This document shows, in pieces, positions 7,288 through 12,639 of a DNA stretch of 32,000 bases. Numbering within the stretch: the first letter of the stretch is position 1; each line of letters begins with the position of its first letter. Under the pieces are notes generated by a model, which saw only the letters and a list, made by a program, of their open reading frames with translations, was not told the DNA's origin and ran no database searches. The stretch comes from an uncultured archaeon (GTDB lineage Archaea > Asgardarchaeota > Thorarchaeia > Thorarchaeales > CAZPUN01). A program made the position numbers and the translations under genes. The stretch covers positions 1-32,000 of the forward strand of contig CAZPUN010000050.1 in the NCBI GenBank assembly GCA_964589775.1. The letters run 5' to 3'.

Positions 7288-9426
7288 TTATAAATCAAAT
7301 TTTAGCCTCGTTCCGAATTCTGGAATTAGAACATCGTCTGGTGCTGAAGTTGCTGGCGTATGTACCATTACCTTTTTCCCTTTTAATTGGCTGACGAATT
7401 TTTCCAGTTTTGATGCTGATGAATGTGCGCTTAATCTTGCATAGAAGACACGAGGTGTTGTCTCGACTAATCCCTTGTGTATCCAATATCCGTATGTTCC
7501 TCTAGCAAGAAAGCCCGTGAATACTATTGCTGCTTCTTCATGTTCTTTATAATACTCAAATTGTTTGCGTGCCTCTCCTCCTTCTAACATGCCGCCTCCA
7601 GACACAAGAATATCATCCTTTTTCAGTTCTTTTTCAGTTCTCAAAAGACCTCTGAATTTTCCTGAAACACCACTCATTTTTGTTATGCTTAATGCCATTC
7701 CGGATAGCAATACATTTCGTTCTCGTGAGATGCCGTACTGGTCTAACATCATTACGATCTCTTGTGCTCTTCCGAGTGCAAATGCAGGTATTATGACCGG
7801 TCCATAATTTTGTACGGCTTCTTTAATTACACTGACGGCTTGAAGTCTATCGAAATCTTCGCGTCCCCAATAAGTTCCATCGAAAATTGTAACATCTGCA
7901 TCTGTTGGCAATATTGCGCCTTCATACAAGAATGTATTATCTAAGTTAAAATCGCCCGTGTATAGTATTTTAAAGCCTTCAATATCAATTTCATAGGCAG
8001 CTGAGCCCGGTACATGCTTCGCATCAATAGGCCTTACGGTGACTCCCGGCGATACGATATATTCCTTGTCATATTCTAAAGATACGTATTTACGCTCTAA
8101 TTTATCAATATTCTTTGCTTTTATATTGTGTACTGGATCATCAATATCCTTTTTACGTTTGGCAGGAATTTGCGATACCTTCAAAGAATCGCGAAGCAAC
8201 ATTTTTGAAATTACACCTGTAGGTCCAACACCCATCCATTTCTGGTCATAATATTCAAAGAGCGCTGGGAGTCCTCCAACATGATCAATATGTGCATGAG
8301 TTATCAGTATCGCATCCAAATTTTCAAGGTCCGGAGCCCATTTTGGAATCGATAGATGTGCGACTGAAAAACCGTAATCCAGTAATATAGCTCCATAATC
8401 CGTTTTAATCAAGATTCCGCTTCTTCCAATTCGCGGGCCGCCTAAGAATTCGATCTCAATATGTCTTATTTTTCCACTATATGCTAATGCAGGCATAACG
8501 CCCTTCAGTATTGGCTCAGGAACCTTACTGAAAACCTCATATGATAATGGTTCAATTTCTGGAGGATTTTCAAGTTTGTAGAGTCTAATCGGATACGGTA
8601 AATTATTCTTTGATATTAATCCATATTCCTCATATTTTTTTGAGACCTTATCAAAAGCTTCTTCGAGTGTGAATTTTCCATTACTTTCAATTGAGCTATA
8701 GGCTTTATTTTCAAAATATTTGTAGGATATATGAACGATTCTTCTTGAAGTTTCTTTCACTTTATTATAAATGTAGTTAAATTTCATCTCGGAAAAAATT
8801 TCATCAAGGAATTCCCCTCGTCTGTTAATCAGATCTTTCAATCTAAACGTATCTGATTGGTATAGTATTTCACCATCAATATTGAATTTCTTGAGTACGT
8901 CAATGATATCTTTCTCTTGCATTATGGGGGTGCCTAAGAATGTCGTATATTCCCAGATCTTATTGACGAAATCTTCTGTTTCTTTCCAATCGTCAAAAAG
9001 ACCCAGCCATACAATATCTCGATTGATTTTTTTAATAGTTGCTTTACCTTTATGACCTGCCTTATATAGATTAATAATTACAATTCTAAAATCATCAATT
9101 GTTGATTTCTTAAGAAATATTAGATATGCCATTAAGTTCAGTACGTCTTTAACATATTCTTGTTTAATTTTACGTTTAAAGAGGAGCCTTTTTAATACAT
9201 CTATGAGTTCAGTTCCCTCTTCATCATCAATTTCAAAAAGTGGAAATTCTCCAATCGGCTTTATTTGTAGAGCAAAATTAAATAATTTCTCGCCATTTGG
9301 GAACTGTTTTATTATGTTCATAAAAGTCTCGTCATTCGTAGCGTCATCGGGATTCAAATTTTTCAAGTGTTGATGGATATCACTCAATTTTCTCAGTTGC
9401 GGCTCGCTCATATTTTTCAACCACAT
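7288..9426 (-). CDS. Metallo-beta-lactamase/beta-CASP ribonuclease (aCPSF-like) with an uncharacterised N-terminal extension of about 320 aa
   Basis: Motifs LLDYG, THAHIDH, HVPGSA, YTGDF, DGTY, PAFALGRAQE, LSAH and the final VMVH. Confidence 0.88.
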   Translation of the reverse strand: MWLKNMSEPQLRKLSDIHQHLKNLNPDDATNDETFMNIIKQFPNGEKLFNFALQIKPIGEFPLFEIDDEEGTELIDVLKRLLFKRKIKQEYVKDVLNLMAYLIFLKKSTIDDFRIVIINLYKAGHKGKATIKKINRDIVWLGLFDDWKETEDFVNKIWEYTTFLGTPIMQEKDIIDVLKKFNIDGEILYQSDTFRLKDLINRRGEFLDEIFSEMKFNYIYNKVKETSRRIVHISYKYFENKAYSSIESNGKFTLEEAFDKVSKKYEEYGLISKNNLPYPIRLYKLENPPEIEPLSYEVFSKVPEPILKGVMPALAYSGKIRHIEIEFLGGPRIGRSGILIKTDYGAILLDYGFSVAHLSIPKWAPDLENLDAILITHAHIDHVGGLPALFEYYDQKWMGVGPTGVISKMLLRDSLKVSQIPAKRKKDIDDPVHNIKAKNIDKLERKYVSLEYDKEYIVSPGVTVRPIDAKHVPGSAAYEIDIEGFKILYTGDFNLDNTFLYEGAILPTDADVTIFDGTYWGREDFDRLQAVSVIKEAVQNYGPVIIPAFALGRAQEIVMMLDQYGISRERNVLLSGMALSITKMSGVSGKFRGLLRTEKELKKDDILVSGGGMLEGGEARKQFEYYKEHEEAAIVFTGFLARGTYGYWIHKGLVETTPRVFYARLSAHSSASKLEKFVSQLKGKKVMVHTPATSAPDDVLIPEFGTRLKFDL

Positions 9427-9439
9427 TTTATTGTCTATT

Positions 9440-10489
9440 TCACTTTTTAATGCTATATATGCTAAACCTGCTATCTCTAAGCATTGTGCGTTTCGTAATT
9501 AGTCCTTGTTCCAGTAATAAAGATAATGCATATCGGACTGTACGCGGCGGTAATTTGCTTTCCTCAATCAATTCTCTTTGAGTTAATTTGCCCTCATACT
9601 CTAAGATTTTCAAAATTAACTTCGCACTTGGTGGAATATCCGTGGCAATATCAAATAAATCTATTTTTTGCTTGAGTTTGTCCTGAATTTCCGCAAGACT
9701 ACTCTTACTGAAAGTAATAAATTCTACAGGATTATCTGATTTCCAGATTTGGATCTCATTTGAGTTTAAGGACACGCGCTTCTGTCCATCAAGAACTACA
9801 GAAATTCCAGATGAGGACTCGATTTCGGTTATTTTTATTTTTGATTCATCTGGTACAATTAGTGCTCTGCGTGATAGATTTATTGAATTTACCGGTGTAA
9901 TTCCGAAAACTGCTGAATTTGTACCAATGATTGGTCCTCCTGCCGATAGTGAATAGCCTGTAGAACCCGTAGGCGTTGTCACTATTACACCATCTGCGCC
10001 ATCTCGCCACATGCGTTCATCATTAATAATCAGCGTATAGCGGATTAATGTAGCACTCTTTTTCGAAAAAATCGTTAAGTCATTAAGTAATGGTGGACAC
10101 TTTGACCCATTAATAACGCATTGCAATCGTGTTCTTTTTTCTATGGACCATTTCCTTTCGCTAATTAGTTTTGAAATTGTCTCTAATTCTGCAATATTTA
10201 TTTCACTTAAGAAGCCCGCTTCATTGATTGGAGAAACTGGCAGAATTTTGATTTTCTCGTCAGGTCTGCTGAGTAAGAAATTTAGAATGAACTTATCGTT
10301 GCCGATTAAAATATACATGTCCGCTTTAATTTCGTCATTTGGTAATCCTTTCTCATTTACTTTATCAGCCGCACATTTGTTTAATATGACCTCTACTCCT
10401 TCCTCTTCCAGGGCAAGCACGGCTTCTTTTAGTGGTTCAGCGCATTTGGCTTCCGATTGTGTAAGAATTCCGACCTTCAAGAGAGCCAC
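9440..10489 (-). CDS. NAD kinase-like protein fused to a C-terminal winged HTH
   Basis: GFL, LND, ADGVIVTTPTGSTGYSLSAGGP and LDGQ are present; GGDG is replaced by GNDK. The C-terminus PPSAKLILKILEYEGKLTQRELIEESKLPPRTVRYALSLL..RDSR is a wHTH. Confidence 0.88.
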   Translation of the reverse strand: MALLKVGILTQSEAKCAEPLKEAVLALEEEGVEVILNKCAADKVNEKGLPNDEIKADMYILIGNDKFILNFLLSRPDEKIKILPVSPINEAGFLSEINIAELETISKLISERKWSIEKRTRLQCVINGSKCPPLLNDLTIFSKKSATLIRYTLIINDERMWRDGADGVIVTTPTGSTGYSLSAGGPIIGTNSAVFGITPVNSINLSRRALIVPDESKIKITEIESSSGISVVLDGQKRVSLNSNEIQIWKSDNPVEFITFSKSSLAEIQDKLKQKIDLFDIATDIPPSAKLILKILEYEGKLTQRELIEESKLPPRTVRYALSLLLEQGLITKRTMLRDSRFSIYSIKK

Positions 10490-10551
10490 CTTTCTTTAAT
10501 AACTTGATGCAAACTCATTCTTTAATATTTCGGAGTTTTTCCAATATATTT

Positions 10552-10568
10552 GAGGTAAAAATTGCCTC
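10552..10568. promoter_or_regulatory. Candidate operator between the NADK-HTH gene and nadA
   Basis: GAGGTAA-AAA-TTGCCTC: 7-bp arms with one mismatch, in the divergent intergenic region. Confidence 0.35.
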
Positions 10569-10635
10569 TTTTTTAATGTTTTTGCTCTCCTTGCCAATTG
10601 AGTCTTTCTTAAAAAGGAACAAATAAAATTAACAT

Positions 10636-11598
10636 ATGGGACTGAAAATGACTTTATCTGAGTTACAACGAGAAATAATCGAGCTAAAGAAGAAAAGAAA
10701 CGCTCTTATACTTGCGCATTCGTACCAACCAATTGAGATTCAGCAAATTGCAGATCTTGTAGATGATAGTCTAGCACTTGCACGAGCTGCCGAGCGAGAT
10801 ACATCACATGATATGATCTTACTTGCCGGTGTCGATTTCATGGCTGAAGGCGCTGCAATTCTGAATCCACAAATCCCTGTATATGTTCCGGAACCCAATG
10901 CTGGATGTGTCTTAGCCAAGTTTGGAGATGTCGAATCAATTTTACAAGCAAAGGCTGAGCATCCAGATGCTCCTGTCGTTCTTTATGTAAATACTACGGC
11001 AGAAGCAAAAGCTCATGCGGATATTATTTGTACTTCTCGAAATGCTGTAGATGTTGTTAGAAGCTTAAATAGTGATATTGTCTTGTTTGGACCTGATGTA
11101 AATCTTGCTGAGTTCGTAAGGCGTCAAGTTCCTGAAATTGAGATCATTGATATAAATCCAATTGGTCATTGTTCTGTGCATCAATTTATTTCTGTAGATG
11201 ATATATTGCGGCATAAGAAAGCGTATCCTGAGGCCGAAGTGATAGTACATCCCGAATGCCCACCTAAAGTTCAAGATATTGCTGATTATGTTGCCTCAAC
11301 AAGTCTGATGATCGAACGAGTGAAAAACTCTGATAAGAATGTATTTATAATCGGCACAGAAATCGGACTCGTGGAACGGCTTCAGCTTGAAAATCCCGAT
11401 AAACTAATTATAGCTGCTAAGAGTAATGCTATTTGTGTAAATATGAAGAAGAACACCCTTGAGAAGATATTATTTGTGCTCAAAGAGCTACCCGAAAGTC
11501 ATCGCGTAAGCGTTCCTGAGGCTATTGCTGAAAAGGCACTTCAGGCATTAAAACGCATGACGCAAATATATACGCATGTTTCAGTTAAAACAAAATAA
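10636..11598 (+). CDS. nadA: Quinolinate synthase A
   Basis: Motifs ILAHSYQ, DSLALA, GVDFMAE, AGC, YVNT, CTS, HCSVH, HPEC, GTE and CVNMKK; three Fe-S cysteines. Confidence 0.96.
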   Translation: MGLKMTLSELQREIIELKKKRNALILAHSYQPIEIQQIADLVDDSLALARAAERDTSHDMILLAGVDFMAEGAAILNPQIPVYVPEPNAGCVLAKFGDVESILQAKAEHPDAPVVLYVNTTAEAKAHADIICTSRNAVDVVRSLNSDIVLFGPDVNLAEFVRRQVPEIEIIDINPIGHCSVHQFISVDDILRHKKAYPEAEVIVHPECPPKVQDIADYVASTSLMIERVKNSDKNVFIIGTEIGLVERLQLENPDKLIIAAKSNAICVNMKKNTLEKILFVLKELPESHRVSVPEAIAEKALQALKRMTQIYTHVSVKTK

Positions 11599-11664: not shown

Positions 11665-12639
11665 TTGACTGAAAAATTTCAAGAGTTAGTTGAAAAAATT
11701 GAAGTATTTCTCTTTAGAAACGATGGAGTCTGCATATTATCGAAAACCAAAAGGTCTCCAGAATTATTTACGAGCATGCTAGCTGCAATTGAAGCCTTTA
11801 CACATACGGTCTCCGGTCTCGGTGCTGAAGAAGTAACTATGGGTGATAATAGAATTAATTACTCAAGAAATGGAGATATCGTCTGTGCTGTAATAACGCC
11901 TGAGTCTTTTGATCCGCACATTGGGAACGCAATCTCAAAATCTATCGCTGATATTTTTGTTTCAAAATATGGCTCATATCTTGCATTTTGGAAAGGCAAT
12001 CTGGATGATTTTAGCGATTTTTCAACCGAGATCGATGATATAATCCATTCTGTTCTTTCTTCGTTTGGTGAGAAAATTGTATCTTCCCACATAGTATCAG
12101 TTCATGAACTTATACGAATGTATGGTGAAGACGTTTCACAAATTCTCTATAGTATTATCATGAATATTCCTATTGTTATTTATGGTGATCGTAAGAAAGT
12201 AGAAGGAATAATTAATCAACTTTCCAACTTTTTCATAAAGGATGCGCCCAACCTATCATGGGTAGAACCTGAACTGGTAAATGAGCTCATAAAATCTCAT
12301 GATTTCGTAATTATTGGTAGCTCAGTTCCACCCACCGATACTACAAATGTCTTGATTCTATCTACTAATAAAGTTGAAAATAAATTAACTGAAAATAAAT
12401 ATCTCCAAAAAATTGCGAATGTGTTATTAGAGAATTTAGATGATTGGAATGATGAAGAGGCTCACAATTTTCTGTCTATGAAAAAGGCTGAATTCTTTAA
12501 ATGTGTGGAACTAGCCGAAGAATTAATTAGCAAATACAATTTTTCTGTTGAAGAGTTAAGCAAAATTCTTGAAATCTCGGAAGATATGTTGTTCCTTGTT
12601 TATGCAGTAGCAAAACGAAATATTGAATCTTCGCAATAA
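11665..12639 (+). CDS. Longin plus DENN/folliculin-like domain protein
   Basis: N-terminal longin pattern (VFLFRNDGVCIL..LFTSMLAAIEAF...F..KYG....WKG...DF..F). It is followed by a core-DENN-like pattern (LIRMYG..VSQILYSII...PIVIYG..KKV..II.QL...FVIIG). Confidence 0.65.
   Translation: MTEKFQELVEKIEVFLFRNDGVCILSKTKRSPELFTSMLAAIEAFTHTVSGLGAEEVTMGDNRINYSRNGDIVCAVITPESFDPHIGNAISKSIADIFVSKYGSYLAFWKGNLDDFSDFSTEIDDIIHSVLSSFGEKIVSSHIVSVHELIRMYGEDVSQILYSIIMNIPIVIYGDRKKVEGIINQLSNFFIKDAPNLSWVEPELVNELIKSHDFVIIGSSVPPTDTTNVLILSTNKVENKLTENKYLQKIANVLLENLDDWNDEEAHNFLSMKKAEFFKCVELAEELISKYNFSVEELSKILEISEDMLFLVYAVAKRNIESSQ

Follow-up and report, generated by a model that had tools for sequence, protein, structure and literature searches.

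The window analysed here, a 32,000-nucleotide stretch of contig CAZPUN010000050.1 from an uncultured archaeon of the order Thorarchaeales, encodes a 349-residue protein, P0001, that is probably a one-component transcription factor derived from a duplicated NAD kinase and matching transcription of nadA, the quinolinate synthase gene, to the level of NAD(P). The original prediction, made from the letters of this DNA, was a one-component regulator of de novo NAD synthesis; synteny, a second NAD kinase in the genome and conserved operators support it. In the mechanism we propose, the NAD-kinase body would keep its dinucleotide pocket and serve as a sensor of NAD(H) or NADP(H). The winged helix-turn-helix (wHTH) at the C-terminus, of the Lrp/MarR-like type, would bind two 13-bp dyads, O1 and O2, as part of an oligomer. 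Occupancy of the pocket would alter DNA binding and so set transcription of nadA, the committed de novo step, and probably that of the regulator's own operon too. The protein itself is predicted to be a poor kinase or none, because the phosphoryl-donor side of its active site is remodeled. The features on which this proposal draws lie as follows, in positions of the window.

9440 to 10489, minus strand: gene of P0001, candidate NAD(P)-sensing transcription regulator (open reading frame of 349 aa with a GTG start; NAD-kinase fold plus wHTH)

9443 to 9640, minus strand: codons of the C-terminal wHTH, residues 284-349 (HTH_24 match; signature PPSAK...LP.RTVR.AL...RD.R..Y.)

9932 to 10003, minus strand: codons of the NAD-binding core, conserved region II (DGADGVIVTTPTGSTGYSLSAGGP, residues 163-186), with invariant residues

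10292 to 10303, minus strand: codons of GNDK, residues 63-66, an altered GGDG with the Asp kept and the second and fourth Gly replaced

10490 to 10635, no strand assigned: control region separating the divergent regulator and nadA genes (146 bp; aligned with 27 non-identical related regions)

10636 to 11598, plus strand: nadA, quinolinate synthase, the presumed target (Pfam NadA, 4.5e-104; divergent to the regulator in most related loci)

P0001 has the fold of an NAD kinase. Residues 135-259 match the Pfam family NAD_kinase_C (8.7e-28), and PF20143, the C-terminal NAD-kinase domain, passes its cut-off with 97 bits against 23.7. PF01513, the N-terminal domain, has no match in the protein at E <= 0.01, and all NCBIfam NAD-kinase models score about half their cut-offs or less, the best of them reaching 150.8 bits against 304. 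The AlphaFold2 model (mean predicted local distance difference test score, 86.6) shows a complete two-domain NAD-kinase fold, and its best Foldseek matches are the solved NAD kinases 7qvs, 2an1, 1u0r and 1suw, with target template-modeling scores of about 0.8 and E values down to 1e-25. A low-confidence linker (residues 270-282) joins the kinase body to the wHTH. The original prediction had read a wHTH fused to the C-terminus, and this is borne out by Pfam matches of residues 284-334 to HTH_24 (3e-08) and MarR_2 (7e-06) and by the modeled helices 287-299, 304-311 and 315-327 and strands 331-334 and 344-347, which form a beta-hairpin wing. HTH_24 is the best Pfam match of this domain at 33.5 bits against a cut-off of 21.9; MarR_2 falls just below its own (26.5 against 27). 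The wHTH signature, recognition residues included, is invariant across two phyla. Neither Nudix, 3H nor NMNAT/RNK effector domains were found in P0001 by Pfam at E <= 0.01, nor was homology to the RibK kinase domain, as Pfam gives NAD_kinase_C and HTH families only. NAD kinases are dimers or tetramers with the NAD site at the dimer interface, where the neighboring subunit is needed (PMC8553519). Because of this requirement an oligomer of P0001 could place two wHTH pairs on two dyads and link occupancy of the pocket to DNA binding; a homodimer prediction scored 0.39 against a mark of 0.42.

The kinase motifs are conserved unevenly. Three motifs, GGDG, NE/D and conserved region II, are common to all NAD kinases; GGDGT is found in 124 of 127 archaeal NAD kinases, and its Asp abstracts the proton from the 2'-OH (PMC8553519). 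P0001 retains LND (135-137), DG..TPTGSTGY.LSAGGP (166-186), GADGVIVTTPTGSTGYSLSAGGP and VLDGQ, in agreement with the earlier statement that the NAD-binding half is well conserved. D166, G167, T172, G175, S176, T177, Y179 and G185 are invariant in 49 family members and the same in canonical NAD kinases. The change of GGDG to GNDK and the retention of the Asp within it are likewise as predicted. Family-wide this position reads G-S-D-R/K, against GGDG(T/S) in 21 of the 21 canonical Asgard paralogs compared. The GIN.G motif, thought to be lost, is altered instead: motif II reads SPINEAGFLSE in P0001, with its first Gly gone and its Asn and GFL.E kept. Columns that are invariant in the canonical enzymes and changed in the fusion proteins comprise the Gly at positions 2 and 4 and the Thr of GGDGT and, in motif II, the Asn and two Gly. 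Columns identical in both comprise N136, D166, G167, T172, G175, S176, G184-185, D234 and G235. Judged by these residues, the fusion family keeps the dinucleotide pocket and even the Asp and has the glycine-rich donor side rebuilt. We also considered the Arg or Lys that replaces the last Gly of GGDG as a mark of an NADP-specific pocket; this was dropped, as GRDG, GEDK, GTDS and GTDG occur outside the Thorarchaeota-type clade.

A canonical NAD kinase exists alongside P0001, as the original prediction had proposed to check. The assembly (2.16 Mb in 64 contigs, 96.8% complete) encodes on another contig (C21) a 286-aa NAD kinase with GGDGT, NRGSFGF, region II and DGQ intact. Of 81 genomes sampled from the same order, 77 have such a canonical kinase, among them all 24 of high quality. 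A metagenome-assembled genome (MAG) labeled Bathyarchaeota carries both the canonical kinase and the fusion gene. P0001 is therefore not the housekeeping NAD kinase of the cell. In a tree built on the kinase domain alone, with the wHTH removed, a single branch (Shimodaira-Hasegawa-like approximate likelihood-ratio test, 100) splits 49 fusion proteins from 21 canonical Asgard NAD kinases. P0001 and an 87%-identical relative form a long branch inside the fusion side. A third NAD-kinase-like gene is found on contig C13 (L003:799-1920, plus strand); its 373-aa product has GGDGT, a PF01513 match and a weak PF20143 match and is distant from both the canonical kinase and the fusion.

Synteny places the fusion gene with NAD synthesis. 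The head-to-head arrangement with nadA across 146 bp (10490-10635) is as predicted, and it is not unique to this genome: wherever a same-order locus includes an upstream flank (26 of 26), nadA is divergent to the regulator gene, and the same is true of 9 of 10 loci in family f5 and of both in f15. It is also found on NCBI contigs labeled Thorarchaeota and Promethearchaeota, in Asgard genomes labeled Baldr- or Hermodarchaeota and in Thermoproteota. An independent second sample, from named species genomes, had a divergent nadA in 49 of 70 loci. The Bathyarchaeota-labeled MAG has a nadX-nadA operon at the divergent position. In families f16 and f20 a nicotinate-phosphoribosyltransferase (NAPRT)-like gene stands beside the regulator gene (6 of 6 loci), with nadA unlinked or not found, and the f16 loci also have an isochorismatase (nicotinamidase-like) gene beside it. 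The partner gene thus changes among nadA, nadX-nadA, NAPRT and a pncA-like gene yet stays within NAD synthesis, so inherited gene order is no explanation. In f20 (L042-L045 and the Njordarchaeota-labeled L169 and L171) the regulator and NAPRT-like genes form a pair that is apparently an operon. Since two f20 genomes, 87-91% complete, yielded no nadA and the regulator gene is paired with the NAPRT-like gene, the data suggest that f20 is a salvage-only lineage in which the regulator family switched its target.

The control region holds two dyads and two TATA-like boxes.

10554 to 10566, no strand assigned: O1, GGTAAAAATTGCC (consensus GGCAA-N3-TTGCC, with one mismatch here; conserved across loci)

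10583 to 10605, no strand assigned: O2 position (13-mer at 10583-10595, consensus G.CAA-N3-TTGCC; right half and extension conserved)

10609 to 10616, plus strand: TATA-like box of nadA, TTAAAAAG (55 bp from the O1 start and 27 bp before the ATG)

10520 to 10529, minus strand: regulator-side TATA-like box, CTTTAATATT on the plus strand (CTTAAAT in relatives; kept in the nearest relative)

Aligning 27 non-identical intergenic regions on the palindrome gave the consensus GGCAAa.gTTGCC, 16 bp, G.CAA...TTGCC, g.TTG.gATTt..TTAAaA, with surroundings that are randomized down to their G+C content. The imperfect palindrome on which the original prediction had fixed, GAGGTAA-N3-TTGCCTC, is present at 10552-10568. 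Only its inner 13-mer, of format 5-N3-5, is conserved, the outer GA and TC being lost even in the 87%-identical relative. That relative keeps O1, the O2 remnant and the TATA-like box exactly. In the window the right half of O2, TTGCC at 10591-10595, continues into the extension TTGCCAATTGAGTCT (10591-10605). The O1 and O2 starts are 29 bp apart, and 37 bp separate the O1 start from the TTGCC of O2; the two centers are about 49 and 20 bp upstream of where the nadA TATA-like box starts. This box is conserved as TTAAaA at the same distance in the 27 related regions and is called TATA by position alone. It starts only 27 bp before the ATG, suggesting that the nadA mRNA is leaderless or near-leaderless. 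Of the sequence data sets listed as containing this stretch none is RNA; two are DNA, one of these a hydrothermal-vent metagenome that may be its source. The dyad format, with its A/T-rich center, fits the HTH_24-type wHTH of P0001, and the invariance of the recognition residues matches the conservation of the operator.

O1, with at most one mismatch, is present in 30 of the 30 loci of the first set, 82-99 bp upstream of the nadA ATG. Among the nadA-adjacent loci of the second sample, 47 of 49 carry a dyad in the intergenic gap, and in 23 a pair of dyads is spaced at exactly 29 bp; composition predicts about 0.006 such sites per 200-bp region. The same dyad also lies between the regulator gene and nadX-nadA in the Bathyarchaeota-labeled MAG (L009), and a second-phylum clade with a divergent nadA has TGCAA-N3-TTGCC between the genes. 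In one f20 genome (L045) the O1-type dyad stands 110 bp before NAPRT with the distances to the proximal TTGCC and the TATA box unchanged, and a weaker one precedes the unlinked nadA of genome G007 (L062).

The presence or absence of the operator tracks that of the regulator gene. Five same-order genomes, 91-98% complete, have nadA and no match to the regulator. In four of them neither O1 nor the left half of O2 is present. The remaining one (L072) has an O1 with two mismatches and an intact O2; since these remain, the regulator gene appears to have been lost recently. In three of the five (L070, L072 and L073) the metallo-beta-lactamase/beta-CASP gene, which lies downstream of the regulator gene in the window, faces nadA directly.

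Several observations weigh against a dedicated sensor acting through two operators. Within the window, O1 departs from the consensus at one base and O2 has a degenerate left half. All five non-carriers retain the right half of O2 together with the box that follows it. As these persist without the regulator gene, they may be elements of the core promoter or of another factor, which counts against a simple two-operator picture. About 30% of the family loci adjoin no recognized NAD gene. A weight-matrix scan of the whole genome for O1 gave 43 hits of at least 11 bits against 27-46 in shuffled genomes, that is, no excess of sites and no further targets above chance. Neither nadC (C43, inside an operon) nor nadB (C55, with its own promoter) has a site in this genome, which narrows the original prediction. 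At the protein level, P0001 keeps the catalytic Asp and, with it, every residue reported vital for NAD-kinase activity, namely the GGDG Asp, the NE/D Asn and the region II Thr and Tyr (PMC8553519). Motif II is also better preserved (IN..GFL.E) than in the relatives of P0001.

The scan bears on the size of the regulon. The O1 of the window is the only high-scoring site in a divergent promoter, and the intergenic hits precede an Hsp20 gene or open reading frames without a family. A wider regulon in this genome was not found, with the site count at the shuffled level. O1 alone is not above chance, and its significance comes from conservation in the 30 of 30 and 47 of 49 related loci. With nadB and nadC lacking a site, the regulon here appears from the sequence to consist of nadA, perhaps together with the operon of the regulator and beta-CASP genes. 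The queries used retrieved no Asp dehydrogenase or NAPRT gene from this genome. The best hit of the scan (C20:30030-30042, L068) is a perfect GGCAACATTTGCC, the only perfect GGCAA-N3-TTGCC in the genome, where one is expected by chance. Its location is an A/T-rich gap where the 3' ends of two genes converge, next to a gene for an AlaX-like editing domain.

Some of these points would fit an ordinary NAD kinase with an accessory wHTH, the dyads being bound by another factor and the nadA synteny inherited. Part of the O2 region outlives the regulator gene, some family members adjoin no recognized NAD gene, and the site of this genome lacks significance by itself. Such an arrangement would leave unexplained why O1 accompanies the gene across families and phyla and is absent where the gene is absent, why the same dyad precedes a different NAD gene, NAPRT, beside the regulator and why the partner genes vary within NAD synthesis. 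It also fits poorly with a GGDG motif that is non-canonical, and we regard it as very improbable.

The protein-level points raise another alternative, a bifunctional trigger enzyme. P0001 would then be an active NAD/NADH kinase, perhaps with a different donor, that also regulates nadA with its own substrate or product as effector. There is precedent in RbkR, an archaeal riboflavin kinase/wHTH regulator that was called a likely activator, with sites upstream of TATA boxes (Rodionova et al. 2017, PMC5397151). The two-domain fold of P0001 is whole, the GGDG Asp, the NE/D Asn and both the Thr and the Tyr of region II are kept, and IN..GFL.E persists in motif II; because of the Asp, the NAD-site residues and this fuller motif II, kinase activity may persist. 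However, both glycine-rich donor motifs are changed clade-wide and are kept in every canonical paralog compared, and the NCBIfam scores reach, at best, 150.8 against 304. RbkR is moreover the only RibK copy in 96 of 119 genomes (PMC5397151), whereas a canonical NAD kinase coexists with the fusion in nearly all genomes. An active trigger enzyme is thus unlikely, though clearly less so than an ordinary kinase, and a sensor with little or no catalysis is the reading we prefer.

The sign of the regulation is less certain than its target. To our knowledge, all characterized bacterial NAD regulators are repressors, and by that precedent an NAD(P)-bound oligomer could span O1 and O2 and close the two divergent promoters, in line with the repression of NAD genes by NadR, NiaR and NrtR. 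O2 abuts the region of the B recognition element and TATA box of nadA, and O1 lies at a variable distance of 5-38 bp from the regulator-side TATA-like box among relatives, so that occlusion would be possible in some genomes. Against repression, no site overlaps the TATA box or the start, and both dyads keep a fixed distance upstream of the nadA TATA box, a placement that in Archaea has been read as activating. Following the argument made for RbkR, this fixed position upstream of the core promoter leads us to favor, by a modest margin over even, activation of nadA that is relieved when NAD(P) is plentiful. A repressor remains a serious second choice, of somewhat better standing than the trigger enzyme.

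RbkR is the closest system described so far, and with P0001 the fusion family would join the enzyme-derived one-component regulators of cofactor synthesis. Both combine the fold of a kinase from a cofactor pathway with a MarR-like wHTH, both come from comparative genomics in Archaea, and both have dyad operators upstream of the promoters of pathway genes, those of RbkR lying also at its own gene. The folds are unrelated, a CTP-dependent RibK in one and an NAD kinase in the other, and the cofactor pathways differ. The wHTH is N-terminal in RbkR and C-terminal in P0001. RbkR is an active kinase and usually the sole RibK, whereas P0001 has altered donor motifs and a coexisting canonical kinase. 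With the canonical NadK/PpnK (PF01513 plus PF20143) P0001 shares the two-domain fold, NE/D, region II and DGQ; it differs in GNDK, the altered motif II, the missing PF01513 match, a wHTH of about 65 extra residues and its separate clade.

Other regulators share parts of this design. NrtR (Nudix plus wHTH), NiaR (HTH plus 3H) and NadR (HTH plus NMNAT plus RNK) follow the same logic of an enzyme-like nucleotide-binding domain joined to a DNA-binding one in control of NAD synthesis and salvage genes, and they are often encoded divergently. These are bacterial repressors without relation to P0001 in sequence or fold, whereas P0001 is archaeal, with an NAD-kinase-fold sensor and an Lrp-like 5-N3-5 operator. 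Dimers of the archaeal Lrp/feast-famine regulatory proteins (FFRPs) recognize abcde-[AAT/ATT]-edcba, as found by SELEX (PMC2715240). They share with P0001 the HTH_24-type domain and with O1 and O2 the operator format. Unlike them, P0001 has no RAM/ACT-like effector domain or amino-acid ligand, and its wHTH is C-terminal to an enzyme fold. In the literature searched, with subscription journals outside its coverage, we found neither a description of an NAD-kinase/HTH regulator nor a transcriptional regulator of archaeal NAD synthesis.

The fusion is widespread, as the original prediction had allowed in noting that it may occur in other archaea. A protein search with P0001 returned more than 120 clusters (336-404 aa, 39-50% identity), mostly from MAGs labeled Thorarchaeota or Promethearchaeota. 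The public names of these relatives vary among NAD kinase, sugar kinase and MarR/wHTH regulator. Searching 185,579 species genomes with the wHTH signature [LIV]PPSAK[LF][VI][LH]K found 180 relatives. The Asgard carriers are labeled Thor-, Prometh-, Hermod-, Baldr- and Njordarchaeota; other labels are Brockarchaeota, Nitrososphaeria, Ca. Terraquivivens and one Woesearchaeota-labeled genome. Cultured carriers are Vulcanisaeta distributa JCM 11217, other Vulcanisaeta, Caldivirga sp. MU80 and Metallosphaera javensis J1. The full-length fusion is found in 45 of 151 sampled genomes of the phylum of the Bathyarchaeota-labeled MAG. A homolog search with the wHTH region only retrieved members of the same family alone, from 46 candidates, a number so small that the search says little on other contexts.

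Taken further, the family may be the main controller of NAD homeostasis in much of Archaea, a reading to which we give about even weight. A pseudoenzyme NAD-kinase sensor would read the NAD(P) pool through the pocket at its subunit interface and activate de novo (nadA, nadX-nadA) or salvage (NAPRT, pncA-like) genes through a paired operator whose distance to the TATA box is fixed. The lineages concerned would be Asgard, Bathyarchaeia, Nitrososphaeria, Brockarchaeota, Thermoproteales and some Sulfolobales. If true, this would be the first archaeal NAD regulator known and also the first transcription factor to be built on NAD kinase, filling a gap in archaeal NAD regulation for Asgard and a large part of Thermoproteota. 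It would add a further enzyme fold to those recruited as metabolite sensors, with a clean duplication history in which the canonical paralog was retained, the donor motifs were lost and the ligand motifs were kept. The proposal is open to experiment, with an operator defined to the base and cultured carriers at hand, and genes now named NAD kinase, sugar kinase or MarR family regulator could be better annotated.

Two groups of relatives stand in other contexts. In a second-phylum clade with the motif GTDS (L099-L104) the gene lies between enolase-like, prefoldin-like and FtsY-like genes with no NAD gene nearby; no dyad of the Asgard type was found at these loci. In Metallosphaera javensis J1 (L186:287-2863) a 333-aa member with GTDG, TPAGSTAY and DGV is divergent to a gene for a 501-aa multi-pass permease. 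The sequence GGCAAAAAATGCC is found at the 5' end of this member. This permease may transport a vitamin or a precursor and be controlled in the same way.

The surroundings of the pair in the window include one further gene of context.

7288 to 9426, minus strand: metallo-beta-lactamase/beta-CASP gene, 712 aa (Pfam; 13 nt downstream of the regulator gene stop)

Its pairing with the regulator gene is conserved across the order, and the two are probably co-transcribed. About 320 N-terminal residues of the 712-aa beta-CASP protein have no Pfam family match. Directly 3' of nadA, a 324-aa open reading frame (11665-12639, plus strand) has no significant Pfam family, and the nearest relative (L096) has a 324-aa gene without a family at the same place after nadA. 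Just past the beta-CASP gene, L006 and L096 encode small GTPases of the Arf/Ras/Roc type, as is usual in Asgard genomes.

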